Part shown: piece by piece, positions 35,715-41,337 of the stretch
How positions within the stretch are numbered: the first letter of the stretch is position 1
How the letters are laid out: each line of letters begins with the position of its first letter
Virus record (IMG/VR): IMGVR_UViG_3300033146_003848
Location: 82,141-146,140 of that record
DNA length: 64,000 nt
Reading direction: 5' to 3' (one strand)
DNA from: a virus
Made by a program: the position numbers and the translations under genes
Notes under the pieces: generated by a model
Databases searched by the model: none
What the model was told of the DNA's origin: nothing
What the model saw: only the letters and a program-made list of their open reading frames with translations

Positions 35715-35731
35715 AGGGAATAGTATTATAT

Positions 35732-35765
35732 AAAAAAAAGTAGTTGCTATTCGCAACTACTTTTT
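35732..35765. terminator. bidirectional terminator, repeated 4 times
   Basis: AAAAGTAGTTGC-TATTC-GCAACTACTTTT; also at ~36993, ~38198, ~39292. Confidence 0.85.
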
Positions 35766-35774
35766 ATCAAATAT

Positions 35775-36233
35775 CTAACGCTTCACAAGTTCTGCAATAT
35801 TTTCTAGTTTTGAAAAATGTGACATCTCATCAAAATGTATATTCAATAGTGAGTTTGTGATTAATAAAGCAATCTCTAAAGCATTTTGTTCCAGATCATC
35901 AAAATGATTTAGAATAAAATTTAAATCATCAAAACTTTCATATTCCAATGCTAGTTTTAATTCTTGAATTCGAAATTTAAAATCTCTTTTTCCCAGTTCC
36001 TCTGCTTCGTCGGCAATTCCCGCAACATCAATTATATGAAAAAGAAATATTGCTTTTTCTTCAATTGAATATTCATGTTTTCTTGAGTCAATAAAAGCAA
36101 GCGTAAAATCAAAATCTTTTGTATACTCATCTATAGCATACAGTCTCTCTAATTCAGTATCAAATTGTTTTTCAAAAGCAATGTGAAACAATTCATGATC
36201 AATTTCTTTTCCGAACACATTAATTTTTTTCAT
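35775..36233 (-). CDS. acidic cassette protein, paralog of 39343-39813
   Basis: LFH..F.K..D, LFH..D..GI, LA.EY, DL..I shared. Confidence 0.75.
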   Translation of the reverse strand: MKKINVFGKEIDHELFHIAFEKQFDTELERLYAIDEYTKDFDFTLAFIDSRKHEYSIEEKAIFLFHIIDVAGIADEAEELGKRDFKFRIQELKLALEYESFDDLNFILNHFDDLEQNALEIALLITNSLLNIHFDEMSHFSKLENIAELVKR

Positions 36234-36342
36234 GATAATTTTCCTGTTTTTAAAGTCTGTACTGACTAAAAAGTTTAAAAACACAAACAAGCAATATCGA
36301 TTGTTTATAAGTAACTATAACATAAAATAATTCCCGTGTCAA
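36231..36342 (-). promoter_or_regulatory. early promoter + two-hairpin leader
   Basis: TTGACACGGGAA..TGTTATAGT. Confidence 0.85.
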
Positions 36343-36820
36343 TTCTATTTCAAATTATTTTAAATTAAAATTATTTTAAAGTAAAAATATTTTAAAAATA
36401 ATAAAATGATATAATAATAAACAAAATAAACTTACTTCAAATAGTTCCATATTCAATCGAGATCAAACGATATGGAAAAATGAATAGTAAACTATATACT
36501 TAAAAAAAATCAATTATCATAACGAAAAAATAAAATAAAATTTGTCAATTTTATTCATTAAAATTAAAAAAAATAATTATAAATAATTATAAAATCACAA
36601 TAGGCTTCTATATTATTTTATTAGATCGATACCTTCCCTAAATTTATAATTGAATTAAAAAAATGATTCATTTTGTTTCAATAATTATTTAAATCAATTC
36701 ACTAAAGGGAATTTCCATCTTGCATTCGACCGTCCTATTCGGGAATTATATGTTCATATAGGTTTAAATCCATTTAGGACGGTTCCCAACCACGATAGGT
36801 CGTCATTTAAGTAAAATTGA

Positions 36821-36975
36821 ACCTCGATGAGAATTAATGATTCCCAAATAGGACGGTACAGAGACATTGACCTCGATGAGAAATAATGATTCCCAAATAG
36901 GACGGTACAGAGACATTGACCTCGATGAGAAATAATGATTCCCAAATAGGACGGTACAGAGACATTGACCTCGAT
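36821..36975. repeat. 3 x 49-bp tandem repeat (TAGGACGG island)
   Basis: units at 36821, 36870, 36919. Confidence 0.9.
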
Positions 36976-36992
36976 AGGGAATAATATTATAT

Positions 36993-37025
36993 AAAAAAAA
37001 GTAGTTGCTATTCGCAACTACTTTT
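36993..37025. terminator. bidirectional terminator copy
   Basis: same sequence as 35732. Confidence 0.85.
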
Positions 37026-37043
37026 ATCAAATATCTTTCAAAT

Positions 37044-37445
37044 TTATGAAAATTGCAAGATTTCTTCTTTTGTTAAATCACTATTATTTAACATTTCAAC
37101 TAAAATATTTTTATTTAATGTTTTTTTATCAAAATGAATTTGAATAGTTTTTTTATCAAATTTCAAACAACTAATTTTTTTCATATACTCATAAAATTTA
37201 TATGAAGTTTGTAGTAAATTCGCTAGAAGTTCCATTGCAATTTTTTTATTTTCAATATCAATATTAGTATCATTATTAAGTTCCTCAAACGCTCTTTTAT
37301 GCATATCAATTAATGATTTAAATAAATCATACTCTTGATCTTCATTTAATCTAGTTTTTGATTTTGCTAAAAAAAGTACACTATCACTTAAAGTTGCATC
37401 AAAAATTTGTTCAAATTCATACGATGTTAATTTAATTTTTTTCAT
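37044..37445 (-). CDS. cassette protein, paralog of 34948-35220
   Basis: 133 aa; no Gly, Pro or Trp. Confidence 0.75.
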   Translation of the reverse strand: MKKIKLTSYEFEQIFDATLSDSVLFLAKSKTRLNEDQEYDLFKSLIDMHKRAFEELNNDTNIDIENKKIAMELLANLLQTSYKFYEYMKKISCLKFDKKTIQIHFDKKTLNKNILVEMLNNSDLTKEEILQFS

Positions 37446-37553
37446 GATAATTTTCCTGTTTTTAAAGTCTGTACTGACAAAATTAATAAAAAAACAAACA
37501 ATCAATATCGATTGTTTATAAGTAACTATAACACATAAATTTTCCCGTGTCAA
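37443..37553 (-). promoter_or_regulatory. early promoter + two-hairpin leader
   Basis: near-identical to 38583-38695. Confidence 0.85.
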
Positions 37554-38585: not shown

Positions 38586-38695
38586 GATAATTTTCCTGTT
38601 TTTAAAGTCTCTACTGACTAAAAAGTTTAAAAAAAACAAACAATCAATATCGATTGTTTATAAGTAACTATAACACATAAATTTTCCCGTGTCAA
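38583..38695 (-). promoter_or_regulatory. early promoter + two-hairpin leader
   Basis: TTGACACGGGAA..TGTTATAGT. Confidence 0.85.
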
Positions 38696-39291
38696 TTCTA
38701 TTTTAAATTAATTTAAATTAAAACTGTTTTAATTCTATTTTATTTTATTCCATTTTAAAACAATTAAAATGGAAACTGTTTTACTTTCATTTTAATGATA
38801 CTTAAATAGTTCCATATTCAATCGAGATCAAACGATATAGAAAAATGAATAGTAAACTATATACTTAAAAAAATCAATTATCATAACAAAAAAATAAAAA
38901 TAAAATTGTCAATTTTATTTTAATATTTGATATTTAAAATCAAAAAAATCTATTATATATACTATCGGGAATATATATATATTCAAAAAAAAAATCAAAA
39001 ATTAAGTGAGATAAAATCAAAAAAAATCAAAACAAAAATACTTCTAAGTTTTCAAAAACAATGTAGACATATCGGGAATTTCTTTGCGAAATGATACCCG
39101 CCCTCATTTCAATTAATGAAAATCAACCCTATCCTATTTCAAAAAAATATGAAACAAAATCGGGAAGGTACCTGCCCTATAATATCTAAATACTCCCGAA
39201 TAGGACGGTACAAAGTGAAAGTGAAAGAGAAAGCCAGATTTTCATTTTGAAGTCAATTCCGTTGTCAAAAAATTGACACTAGGAATACGAT

Positions 39292-39322
39292 AAAAAGTAG
39301 TTGCTATTCGCAACTACTTTTT
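39292..39322. terminator. bidirectional terminator copy
   Basis: same sequence as 35732. Confidence 0.85.
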
Positions 39323-39342
39323 GTCAAAATCTTGGAATTATA

Positions 39343-39813
39343 TTATTTTTTTAACATATCTAATCGTTTCAATTCAGATTCGATTTTATCAAACTCATCA
39401 TTCGAAAATTTTCCGTTTCTGATAATATACTCGAGATCGTTTACATAAAAATTGTACTCAACAGCAAGTTCAAAACTATGCATAGTAAAAAAATACTTTT
39501 TTGTTTCAATCATTTTTTCACTCATTTCATCAATTCCATTATTGTCGAGCATATGAAATAACATTTCTTCATTATCTATATCTTTTGATATAGACATTAA
39601 AATAATTATAAACTCGCATTTTTTGGAATACGAAATTCCTTCATAATTATTATCATTTAATTCAAAGATTTTATAAACATCATTATCATATTCTTTAATG
39701 AAAGAATCATGAAACAGTGCATATGGAATATCAATATTAAAGATATTGCACTTTTCACAAACTGTCTCTTTTGTTGTTGTTGTTGTTGTTGTTGTTGTTG
39801 TTGATTTTTTCAT
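39343..39813 (-). CDS. acidic cassette protein with poly-Thr (ACA)10 tract
   Basis: MKKSTTTTTTTTTTK; paralog of 35775-36233. Confidence 0.75.
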   Translation of the reverse strand: MKKSTTTTTTTTTTKETVCEKCNIFNIDIPYALFHDSFIKEYDNDVYKIFELNDNNYEGISYSKKCEFIIILMSISKDIDNEEMLFHMLDNNGIDEMSEKMIETKKYFFTMHSFELAVEYNFYVNDLEYIIRNGKFSNDEFDKIESELKRLDMLKK

Positions 39814-39899
39814 GATAATTTTCCTGTTTTTAAAGTCTATACTGACTATTAGTTTTAAAAAGAAACTGTTTTAAACTATTTTAAAACAGTTTAAAAAAC

Positions 39900-39929
39900 A
39901 ACTTGCAAGACTTTGAAGTCTTGCAAGTT
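39900..39929 (-). terminator. stem-loop
   Basis: AACTTGCAAGACTT-TG-AAGTCTTGCAAGTT. Confidence 0.65.
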
Positions 39930-39939
39930 TCAAGTAATT

Positions 39940-40659
39940 CTATAGTTGCACTATAGAATTACTTCGATTAAGCAAGATCATTATGTCGTTTACTCTTGAT
40001 GTTGCATTTTTTCCTTTTCTTATCTTAGTGTATAAGACATTTTTAAGAGTTCGGAACGCAAAAGAATTTGCATTATTTTTCTGATTTTTAGCAAAGTTAT
40101 GAATTATAACAATACTATTTTTCGATAAATTTGCAACTGAAAAAATTCCAGATTCAGAAAGTGTAAATTTCAGATTCATATTGTTTGTTTTTATAATGTC
40201 TTGACTTTCTGCTAAAATTTCACTTTTCATAACTGAAGCAATAAGTATAGTACTTGCATAAACATAATTTAAGCACTTTTCTTTATAATTCAATAAATTT
40301 GCAGTTTTTTCGACTTTAAACTTTTTTCCATTTTGCATCGTGATAACTAATTTTCCAGTGATAAAATCTGAATTATTTTTTATATCATGTTTTGTGCAAA
40401 ATTTTTCCGACATAAAGTACTTTTCAAAATTCTTTACTGCATACAGTGACTTGAAACTTAAATTTTCTAAAAGTTTATATCGTTTTGTAGAATTCAAATT
40501 ATCAAAAAATTGAGAAACTTTTTTCTTTTCAAGTTCAACTTCTTTGATTTTTTCGTCATTTTTTTTTTCAGTTTCTAAATTTGCAAGATAACTTGTTCTT
40601 TCTTTATCTGACAAATTAAGATTAAAATTGTTGTTTGATTTTTCTGTTAAATTTTTCAT
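39940..40659 (-). CDS. basic Lys/Asn-rich hypothetical protein, first gene of the - strand block
   Basis: 239 aa, AGGAAA RBS, two-hairpin leader; no Pro or Trp. Confidence 0.75.
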   Translation of the reverse strand: MKNLTEKSNNNFNLNLSDKERTSYLANLETEKKNDEKIKEVELEKKKVSQFFDNLNSTKRYKLLENLSFKSLYAVKNFEKYFMSEKFCTKHDIKNNSDFITGKLVITMQNGKKFKVEKTANLLNYKEKCLNYVYASTILIASVMKSEILAESQDIIKTNNMNLKFTLSESGIFSVANLSKNSIVIIHNFAKNQKNNANSFAFRTLKNVLYTKIRKGKNATSRVNDIMILLNRSNSIVQL

Positions 40660-40767
40660 AAAATTTTCCTAATTTTTAAGTCTTATTTTGACTAAAATGT
40701 TTAAAAAAAACTGTATAACGATATTGTTATACAGTCAAGTAATTAAAAGAGCGTTGTTTCTTATAAA

Positions 40768-40796
40768 ATAATAGCATATAATTTCCATTTAGTCAA
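40768..40796 (-). promoter_or_regulatory. sigma70-like promoter
   Basis: TTGACT-17-TATTAT with TG. Confidence 0.65.
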
Positions 40797-41337
40797 TTAT
40801 TTTTTGCAATTTTTTTAAACTGTTTTGTAAGTAATTAAAATTACTACAAAATAAAATCACTTTTATTTTTAATAAAATCAATTAAAAATAAATAAAAATG
40901 TCTTTTTTTAAAAAAAAACTAAATTTTAAATTTTAAAATAGAGAAAAAAATACTCTTTTTATTTTTCTCACGACTAGAACTTGCAATATGAAACTATTGC
41001 TATTCGCAAGTATTCTGAAAAATTAAAAAATCTATTTCTGAAAAAAATCAATAAATAAATTTTTCTGTAAAATTGCAACGCAAGCAAGTCAAATTTTAAT
41101 TTTCTGAAAAAAGTAATATAAAACTATTAAAAAATGAAAAAGTTTCTTAAAATCAAATTTTGTTCGTTTTTGGAAAAGACAAAAAAAGACAAAAAAATTC
41201 ATTTTTTCAAAAATTAAAACATCTTGTTTTTTTTCAAATTTCTTGAATTGTTTCAAAATTGATACAAAACTGTATTTTTTCGCTTTTTATATATAGACGA
41301 ACTATTGACTTAATTTTTTTGAACGGTTACCAGGCGA

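Follow-up and report, generated by a model that had tools for sequence, protein, structure and literature searches.

Avoidance of GG/CC steps outside GGAA in five gene cassettes of an uncultured phage

The DNA analysed here, hereafter the window, comprises the last 64 kb (64,000 nucleotides, nt) of the 146,140-bp IMG/VR contig IMGVR_UViG_3300033146_003848, and all coordinates refer to it unless marked "genome". The contig (30.0% GC, linear class, CheckV completeness 65%) belongs to an uncultured phage of marine sediment which, judged by its genes, is a distant T4-like myovirus. Between 35722 and 41323 the window contains five cassettes of small genes in which GG and CC dinucleotides are found almost only as part of the word GGAA/TTCC. 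A first-pass annotation, made from the sequence alone, had described this stretch as a GG/CC-purged zone. The ban is real. Since the arrays at 39097-39234, 37838-38183, 36603-36978 and 35504-35717 are rich in forbidden GG/CC, the zone consists of four clean bodies split by GG-rich arrays.

Homologous cassettes and the arrays between them

The zone is built from homologous cassettes, six in all, the sixth of which (34948-35720) lies just outside the GG/CC-free part. The promoters are near-consensus (TTGACA-17-TATAGT with an extended -10 element) and each cassette has its own terminator; from these promoter and terminator sequences the cassettes are predicted to be early and strongly promoted. 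The features are given below, with the coding sequence (CDS), its product in amino acids (aa) and the ribosome-binding site (RBS) where applicable. AGCT-neighbours are words that differ from AGCT by one mismatch and contain no GG/CC; they are the words banned from zone 1, which adjoins the cassettes.

41337-41524, no strand: five tandem spacer-less 37-bp units, each with 2 GATC, 2 CCAGG, a FokI-type GGATG/CATCC and GGGAAT
40830-41323, no strand: AT-rich intergenic DNA upstream of cassette 1, GG/CC-free except for 1 GGAA
39900-40796, minus strand: cassette 1; promoter TTGACT-17-TATTAT at 40796-40768, leader hairpin at 40736-40709, RBS AGGAAAA
40659-39940, minus strand: CDS of cassette 1, 239 aa, ORFan; terminator at 39929-39900
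39285-39864, minus strand: cassette 2; conserved leader and RBS, conserved terminator hairpin near 39292-39322
39813-39343, minus strand: CDS of cassette 2, 156 aa, poly-Thr N-terminus, paralogue of cassette 5
39097-39234, no strand: spacer with the TAGGACGG motif, GG-rich and rule-breaking, almost without AGCT-neighbours
38186-39095, minus strand: cassette 3; promoter TTGACA-17-TATAGT at 38695-38667, CDS 38585-38247 (112 aa), terminator at 38231-38201; GGAA/GGGAA only
37838-38183, no strand: inter-cassette array of 73-bp units (TAGGACGG, TTGGGAAT, GGGAATTTCC), GG-rich, few AGCT-neighbours
36982-37835, minus strand: cassette 4; promoter at 37553-37525, CDS 37445-37044 (133 aa), paralogue of cassette 6, terminator at 37025-36997
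36603-36978, no strand: inter-cassette array of one 74-bp and three 49-bp units, GG-rich, few AGCT-neighbours
35722-36600, minus strand: cassette 5; promoter at 36342-36314, CDS 36233-35775 (152 aa), terminator at 35765-35735; rule-breaking CGGC at 36012
34948-35720, minus strand: cassette 6 and array, homologues of cassettes 3-5 that follow the zone-1 rule (GG permitted, AGCT-neighbours lost)
24725-35720, no strand: zone 1, purged of AACT/AGTT, AGAT/ATCT, AGCA/TGCT and AGCG/CGCT, ending at most 25 bp from the start of the GG/CC ban
genome 883-2523 and genome 37598-38671: two N6-adenine methyltransferases, one DUF4942 plus MTS, one of the D12/Dam class

The arrays between the cassettes consist of 49- to 81-bp units that carry TAGGACGG. 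This motif is present in 17 copies contig-wide, all of them within 28988-39201, namely in a non-coding convergence region (28950-29620), once at 32417 and otherwise in the inter-cassette arrays. It is probably the binding site of a protein of the early region. Two arrays start with the near-palindromic GGGAATTTCC, which has GGAA/TTCC half-sites (36707-36716, 37938-37947), and [C/T]GGGAAT recurs in arrays, promoter spacers and 37-bp units; (G)GGAA may thus also be a candidate protein-binding core.

The 37-bp units stand where the late (plus-strand) and early (minus-strand) modules diverge, at the outer limit of the GG/CC ban, and adjoin approximately 500 bp of AT-rich DNA with TTTTTCAGAA repeats. 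They may represent a pac site (P1-like, GATC-rich), iterons, or a stop signal or injection stop. Concerning a GATC-rich pac site, the phage encodes a methylase of the Dam class. Three words of the unit, GATG, GGAT and CCAG, are two- to three-fold depleted in zone 1. The outer boundaries at 24.7 kb and 41.3 kb share no common repeat, a search of 24000-42500 against Rfam (E <= 1) retrieved no family, and GC skew merely tracks the direction of transcription. The protein of cassette 2 starts with MKKS followed by ten Thr, encoded by ten consecutive ACA codons (39772-39801), a slippage-prone tract at the start of an early-type gene.

The ban on GG/CC: extent, strands and position

For 39236-41323 the first-pass annotation had counted 18 GG/CC dinucleotides, every one of them in GGAA/TTCC, and a recount gave the same 18 of 18. 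Mononucleotide shuffles of this stretch (n=20,000) contained on average 45.5 and never fewer than 23 other GG/CC, as compared to none observed. When dinucleotides were preserved (n=5,000), a mean of 4.25 and a maximum of 12 of the 18 fell into GGAA. With composition taken into account, the remaining 15 GGNN words should together number about 43.5; none occurs. The bodies at 35722-36600, 36982-37835 and 38186-39095 hold GGAA or GGGAA only, and the CGGC at 36012 is indeed their sole exception. The rule ends as abruptly as had been claimed, at 41324/41325. Contig-wide, the longest gaps between GG/CC outside (G)GGAA measure 2091, 923, 869, 591 and 304 nt, and all five lie in 35708-41325. The longest such gap outside these limits is 247 nt, and forbidden GG/CC occur there at approximately 39 per kb. 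An unbiased gap scan with all 3- and 4-mers across the contig yielded two anomalous regions only, the GG/CC zone and 24725-35720.

GGAA itself is about two-fold over-represented, with 18 copies against 8.3 in mononucleotide shuffles of 39236-41323 and 63 against 33.8 over the whole zone. Its 3' context is A/T-rich, and because G never follows it (0 of 45) the allowed word is GGAAH.

Low GC content, mutational bias, repeats or an assembly artefact might produce such a pattern without any selection, and the zone is AT-rich (21-26% GC) and partly repetitive; however, the probability of this is negligible, as the shuffles never came near the observed value, a kilobase of 18.7% GC elsewhere keeps 19 forbidden GG/CC, and the clean 2.1-kb stretch carries two unique genes. 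Moreover, the odds ratio within the zone is 0.33 for GG/CC, whereas it is 1.13 for CG and 1.36 for GC, so plain AT-richness is not the cause. With CG and GC at or above expectation, only the G/C homodinucleotide is avoided, not G and C as such. Systematic base-calling errors are excluded, since the open reading frames (ORFs) are intact.

The ban is equal on both strands. The cassette genes lie on the minus strand, and read along their sense strand the 18 sites between 39236 and 41323 are 12 GG, each within GGAA, and 6 CC, each within TTCC. Non-coding DNA follows the same rule. The 494 nt of intergenic DNA 5' of the first promoter contain a single GG/CC (GGAA) where 8 are expected, and the terminator stems are made from GC/CG steps only, e.g. 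GTAGTTGCGAATAGCAACTAC. The change of the RBS that had been noticed in the first pass was found in six of six cassettes (AGGAAAA); among 158 background ORFs, GGAG or GAGG precedes 95 and AGGA alone just 1. Likewise, the conserved GG of the promoter was confirmed to appear as TTGACACGGGAA.

The price is paid by the proteins too. The five ORFs (792 aa) encode no Trp (9.7 expected), one Pro (19.4 expected; ATT-CCA) and 10 Gly (33.9 expected), and each of the 10 Gly codons is GGA with AAA or ATT as the next codon, in agreement with the first-pass count. Their CDS contain 4 forbidden GG/CC, as compared to 92.6 in background genes of equal length, 30.7 for the same proteins written in background codon usage, and 15.5 (minimum 6, n=2,000) after permutation of synonymous codons. 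Choice of amino acids, choice of codons and order of codons thus all contribute. The earlier proposal that selection acts on DNA rather than on protein is well supported by strand symmetry, intergenic DNA, terminator stems, codon junctions and the paralogues that lie on either side of the zone boundary.

These paralogues are located in cassettes 4 and 6. Their proteins are 34% identical, and each gene obeys the rule of its own zone: the copy inside the GG/CC zone (cassette 4) has 2 GG/CC, both GGAA, and 14 AGCT-type words, the copy in zone 1 (cassette 6) has 9 GG/CC and 1 AGCT-type word. The scaffold of cassette 6 differs from its homologues exactly at the rule words, with GGAACT turned into GAGACT, CGGGAA of the promoter spacer into AGGTCT, and TAGTTAC into TACTAGTA. 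Selection therefore acts on the DNA and by position, which speaks for selection in place and against an import of foreign DNA. Cassette 6 is an internal control for this position-specific selection. A pair of multi-helix-turn-helix (multi-HTH) paralogues, 42% identical, spans the left edge of zone 1; the outer copy (23405-24094) contains 18 and the inner copy (25782-26483) 2 AGCT-type words. The inner copy no longer reaches the Pfam thresholds for HTH.

Zone 1 extends over 11 kb. AACT/AGTT occurs there once (136 expected), AGAT/ATCT 12 times (149 expected), and AGCA/TGCT (82 expected) and AGCG/CGCT (27 expected) are missing; AGCC/GGCT and AGGT/ACCT are at normal levels. T4-type primase sites (GCT/GTT) and an AID-like WRCY hotspot were considered as the meaning of these words and rejected, GGCT, TGTT and TACT not being depleted. 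The GC content of zone 1 is 31-39%, against 21-26% in the cassettes, and GG/CC words are about two-fold enriched. GGCC is not avoided in zone 1 (11 against 9.4 expected), whereas elsewhere 9 copies stand against 63 expected. Three small proteins of zone 1 (25072-25422, 26546-26929, 33748-34194) share a common N-terminal domain and possess dense CxxC/CTxC repeats (e.g. CTNCTDCTDC).

The ban of zone 1 stops at 35720-35742, at most 25 bp from where the GG/CC ban starts. At 50-bp resolution, cassette bodies lack forbidden GG/CC and contain AGCT-neighbours, while arrays and zone 1 show the reverse; outside 24.7-41.3 kb both classes of words co-occur normally. From an AGCT-like word, the nearest forbidden GG/CC is a median of 184 nt away in this block and 12 nt away elsewhere. 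The exclusion is strong but not absolute, with approximately 20 AGCT-like words within 20 bp of a forbidden GG/CC in the block.

Across the whole 146 kb, AGCT (about 390 expected) and GCGC (about 70 expected) are absent. GGCC and CGCG are reduced to about 0.2 and GCAGC and GACGC to 0.1-0.2 of expectation, the depletion ranging from 5- to 20-fold when CTTAAG is included; CATG and GATC stand at about 0.6. Taken as a set of words, this reads as the signature of heavy restriction pressure by several Type II enzymes.

A putative reader of GG/CC and alternative explanations

Very probably, the cassettes avoid some activity that recognises GG/CC in duplex DNA while their genes have to work. We infer the existence of this reader and, tentatively and with less than even confidence, identify it as a very frequent nickase or nuclease. 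According to this proposal, the zone would represent five self-contained immediate-early cassettes, in each of which a strong promoter of the sigma-70 type and a conserved leader precede the RBS AGGAAAA, one small ORFan and a hairpin terminator. Selection would have removed duplex GG/CC everywhere except in (G)GGAA followed by A, T or C, and the body of such a "target-free bootstrap" cassette would offer no target to a GG/CC-reading enzyme. The reader might belong to host defence or be the phage's own endonuclease for degradation of host DNA, and its cleavage would be refractory where TT stands 5' of CC. Each cassette would thereby remain undamaged and fit for transcription even if the surrounding GG-containing DNA, spacer arrays included, were nicked or cut.

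Beyond what the first pass had noticed, the arrays carry the AGCT-neighbour-free state of the adjacent zone, and the benefit of the ban is local to each cassette. As the arrays between the cassettes break the rule, the advantage accrues per cassette and not per molecule. A host enzyme that kills by one double-strand cut is not escaped by cleaning the bodies only; the benefit therefore falls to each unit of promoter, gene and terminator. Each body having its own promoter and terminator between GG-rich arrays, a local effect such as a nick or cut inside the transcription unit fits better than a molecule-wide one. The earlier suggestion of simple avoidance of one-cut restriction or of protospacer adjacent motifs (PAMs) fits poorly with GG-rich arrays and enriched GGAA. 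Of the interpretation offered in the first pass, selection on DNA is well supported, one-cut restriction or PAM avoidance is disfavoured, and the modification option, though still a candidate, lacks support from genes in the 146 kb.

We favour a nickase or nuclease because nucleases evidently shape the vocabulary of this genome and because no cytosine methylase or deazaguanine pathway was found in the 146 kb. That the zone-1 ban centres on AGCT, a palindrome banned contig-wide, ties bans of this type to nuclease recognition. Moreover, virus enzymes with CC- and AG-level specificity exist: chloroviruses encode the frequent nickases Nt.CviPII (^CCD) and Nt.CviQII (R^AG) together with cognate methyltransferases (PMC3017599). 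The CC-based and AG-based duplex words of 2-3 nt read by these enzymes are the classes of both bans described here. Chloroviruses, however, protect themselves by methylation, whereas here the sites are purged and no cytosine methyltransferase was found in the contig. Likewise, Nt.CviPII is blind to CCC, a matter of 3' context, while the exemption here is a 5'-TT. For a ^CC nickase, it would be natural if the exemption depended on the two bases that precede the scissile bond (TT^CC).

Several points weigh against this proposal. We know of no enzyme with the specificity "GG unless followed by AA". A host enzyme would also cut the GG-rich arrays and zone 1. An enzyme of the phage itself would require that the other approximately 140 kb of contig, full of GG, be absent or protected at that time, that is, stepwise entry or a later inhibitor. 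The GG/CC zone keeps AGCT-neighbours and zone 1 keeps GG, so two nucleases present together would need extra assumptions on timing. No candidate for a nuclease or nickase reading GG/CC was detected in scans that covered about 70 ORFs with Pfam, about 20 with PHROGs and 10 with NCBIfam, and these scans contained no models for Nt.CviPII-type nickases. Finally, the five zone proteins showed no family, homologue or confident fold in Pfam, PHROGs and the ESM Atlas (Atlas model with a predicted local distance difference test score of 0.40). A profile of the proteins of cassettes 2 and 5 retrieved only itself from 1.84 billion representatives.

A close rival, only somewhat less probable than the nickase or nuclease, is that the phage modifies its own GG/CC but not GGAA, e.g. 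by guanine exchange of the DpdA type, and that the first cassettes are kept unmodifiable. They would thereby stay legible to naive host RNA polymerase and escape damage by a Type IV nuclease or by a glycosylase acting on modified guanine. A ban that is local to each cassette and tolerates GG-rich arrays in cis agrees with this, as modified sites would hurt only inside a transcription unit. Judged by the tail sheath, its closest relatives in culture are Campylobacter phages, a group in which guanine is replaced in the DNA. Known phage DpdA enzymes act on motifs of 2-3 nt, e.g. GA in phage iggy (PMC10484667), and, as proposed here, recognise a short motif with G in double-stranded phage DNA; host glycosylases attacking modified guanines exist as well (bioRxiv 10.1101/2025.10.29.685425) and would make it worthwhile to keep early genes unmodified. 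Yet a motif "GG but not GGAA" is unlike any described, and the genes are lacking. Neither TGT/DpdA (PF01702) nor preQ0 genes with a true QueC or QueE, nor a C5 or N4/N6 beta-class methyltransferase (PF00145, PF01555), were found in the 146-kb contig, which is 65% complete and leaves 35% of the genome missing. The only DNA-modifying enzymes detected are the two N6-adenine methyltransferases. A QueC candidate (match to PF06508) turned out to be NAD synthetase, and a QueE candidate a SPASM/maturase-like radical-SAM enzyme. Furthermore, avoiding GGCC five-fold in the rest of the genome would be needless under a protective GG-directed modification, and Campylobacter phage CP81, the closest cultured relative by sheath, contains no comparable zone (best log10 P -4.1 in the identical gap scan, against -28 here).

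Harm might also require a GG/CC word together with an AGCT-like word nearby, as with a nuclease that is recruited by one and cuts the other, but we consider this unlikely. Each stretch would drop the cheaper class, GG/CC where it is AT-rich and AGCT-neighbours where it is richer in GC, and the purges would reinforce composition until two stable states result. The near-exclusive distribution of both classes at 34.4-41.3 kb with normal co-occurrence outside, their greater distance within the block, the difference in GC content between cassettes and zone 1, and the sharp switch within 25 bp at 35717-35742 argue for such a composite target. The close pairs left in the block argue against it, and we know of no enzyme that acts by this scheme. 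Removal of AGCT-neighbours proved affordable in 11 kb of normal proteins, which leaves the costly ban on GG/CC unexplained, and the arrays may be free of AGCT-neighbours merely by descent from zone-1 copies.

A factor that binds GG/CC duplex and blocks transcription, be it a host-shutoff protein like Alc of T4 or a host silencer, is an improbable cause too. The ban is local, affects both strands alike and respects the limits of transcription units, and the recurrence of GGGAAT/GGAA in arrays, promoters and 37-bp units suggests that a protein reads GG sites here. However, the apparently untranscribed 494 nt 5' of the first promoter are also purged, every other phage gene would be blocked as well, and to our knowledge no protein binds a bare dinucleotide step.

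Avoidance of CRISPR PAMs (NGG for type II, CC for type I-F) at a place where spacers are preferentially taken would account for the loss of GG and CC from both strands, since the loss of any one PAM brings a local benefit. Phages have been described as depleted of PAMs (Kupczok and Bollback 2014, PMC4246573), likewise for motifs of 2-3 nt on both strands; the reported depletion was weak and genome-wide, however, whereas here the ban is complete within a limited region, and a word with a PAM inside it is spared and even enriched. As the first pass had objected, PAM avoidance does not explain GGAA, which is not only tolerated but enriched about two-fold. Since, in addition, the conserved repeated arrays full of GG/CC would be ideal targets, this explanation is disfavoured. 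It leaves the AGCT-neighbour zone unexplained and must be regarded as very unlikely.

A cause at the level of RNA or translation is more improbable still. T4 RegB cuts GGAG, and either an endoribonuclease that cuts mRNA at GG or the shunning of Gly, Pro and Trp codons for depleted tRNAs would suit the change of the RBS, the near loss of these amino acids and the RtcB RNA ligase of the phage; strand symmetry contradicts it, since CC of the sense strand is lost to the same degree as GG. The rule also holds in terminator stems and intergenic DNA, and GG/CC at codon junctions are avoided beyond codon content (4 against 15.5). At most, such a cause could have contributed.

Taken together, the 16.6-kb block (24725-41323) is written in two complementary restricted alphabets, which might betray a pair of undescribed near-dinucleotide DNA readers or one composite reader; we regard this as doubtful. 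One concrete form would be a first-step-transfer segment as in T5, made immune by site purging to the phage's own nucleases that shred host DNA. The A1 nuclease of T5 destroys host DNA, and how first-step DNA survives is an open question (bioRxiv 10.64898/2026.04.02.716235). By conjecture, the block would amount to approximately 7% of a genome of roughly 225 kb.

Relation to known systems and origin of the contig

Avoidance of motifs normally concerns restriction sites of 4-8 bp and is cheap for a phage. The phage described here does without an entire dinucleotide step in a circumscribed group of genes, and the price comprises three amino acids, the usual RBS and normal terminator stems. This implies a strong, unrecognised selective agent which would read duplex GG/CC in the first minutes of infection. 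Its identification would add a player to the conflict of phage and host, whether a frequent nickase, a sensed motif-specific modification or another, and maybe an enzyme of unusual specificity. The GGAAH exemption and the neighbouring AGCT-related zone provide precise predictions of specificity.

Leading or early regions free of a motif are known from T5, whose first-step-transfer DNA lacks EcoRI sites, from Murciavirus for a Type I restriction-modification motif, and from leading regions of plasmids (PMC12455610). As in these, selection against a DNA motif is focused on a sub-genomic block of first-expressed genes and the motif is tolerated elsewhere. The present case differs in that a 2-nt step with one exempt context is banned and not a site of 4-8 bp, that the amino-acid content is reshaped, and that the ban applies per cassette with rule-breaking arrays between; a position at the leading end is only presumed here. 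The genome-wide avoidance of Type II sites is likewise present in the contig in extreme form (AGCT and GCGC absent, GGCC and CGCG five-fold depleted), but the ban of the zone is confined to one region, does not follow the logic of palindromes and covers far more than any recognition site would. In the papers retrieved, we found no description of dinucleotide-free early islands or of modification-free islands. Selection on motifs in early DNA is thus already established; new here are the near-dinucleotide width, the single exempt context, the cost to proteins, the layout per cassette and the complementary ban.

If such islands were common, they would provide a signal, from sequence only, for first-expressed anti-defence genes and for modification or nuclease motifs in uncultured phages. 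If the T5-like form were true, the block would exemplify one way in which first-step DNA can escape scorched-earth degradation. If the two-alphabet reading were true and islands general, "target-free bootstrap genes" would constitute an undescribed strategy.

Relatives of the locus were sought in several collections. Megablast of 35000-42000 against 50,697 phage records, exact searches for leader and array motifs across IMG/VR, and protein-guided locus searches with the 239-aa cassette protein and a 788-aa protein encoded 5 kb from the zone returned no match or related locus; the 788-aa protein had no homologue among 5.8 billion proteins. A degenerate array pattern gave 83 single chance matches in metagenome contigs, none of them AT-rich with repeats or GG-free runs. 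Public matches to the contig are low-depth Logan contigs from one marine-sediment metagenome study, covering about 11% of sampled words. They offered no read starts, no usable coverage step and no RNA run among the matches, and Logan matches at 80% likeness were mostly AT-rich noise.

CP81 displays a weak local dearth of AGCT, CAGC/GCTG and CAG/CTG at 52.6-58.6 kb, among small early-type ORFs. With gaps of about 4.1 kb and 1 kb (log10 P about -3), this dearth fails to reach significance once multiple testing is taken into account; its word family is that of zone 1.

The T4-type replication genes of the contig comprise a family B polymerase, a gp59-like loader, topoisomerase II subunits and gp46/47-like proteins; further genes encode NAD salvage, RtcB, PhoH-PIN and many HNH homing endonucleases. 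The tail sheath protein (50123-54007, 1294 aa) is 33% identical to Campylobacter phage sheaths over its C-terminal third, and its gene is about twice the usual length. This distant similarity and the many banned palindromes of 4 bp hint at a Campylobacterota-like host. The sheath gene is adjoined by a stretch of approximately 8 kb (54070-62255) with four large genes for HNH homing endonucleases (461-544 aa, phrog_3339).

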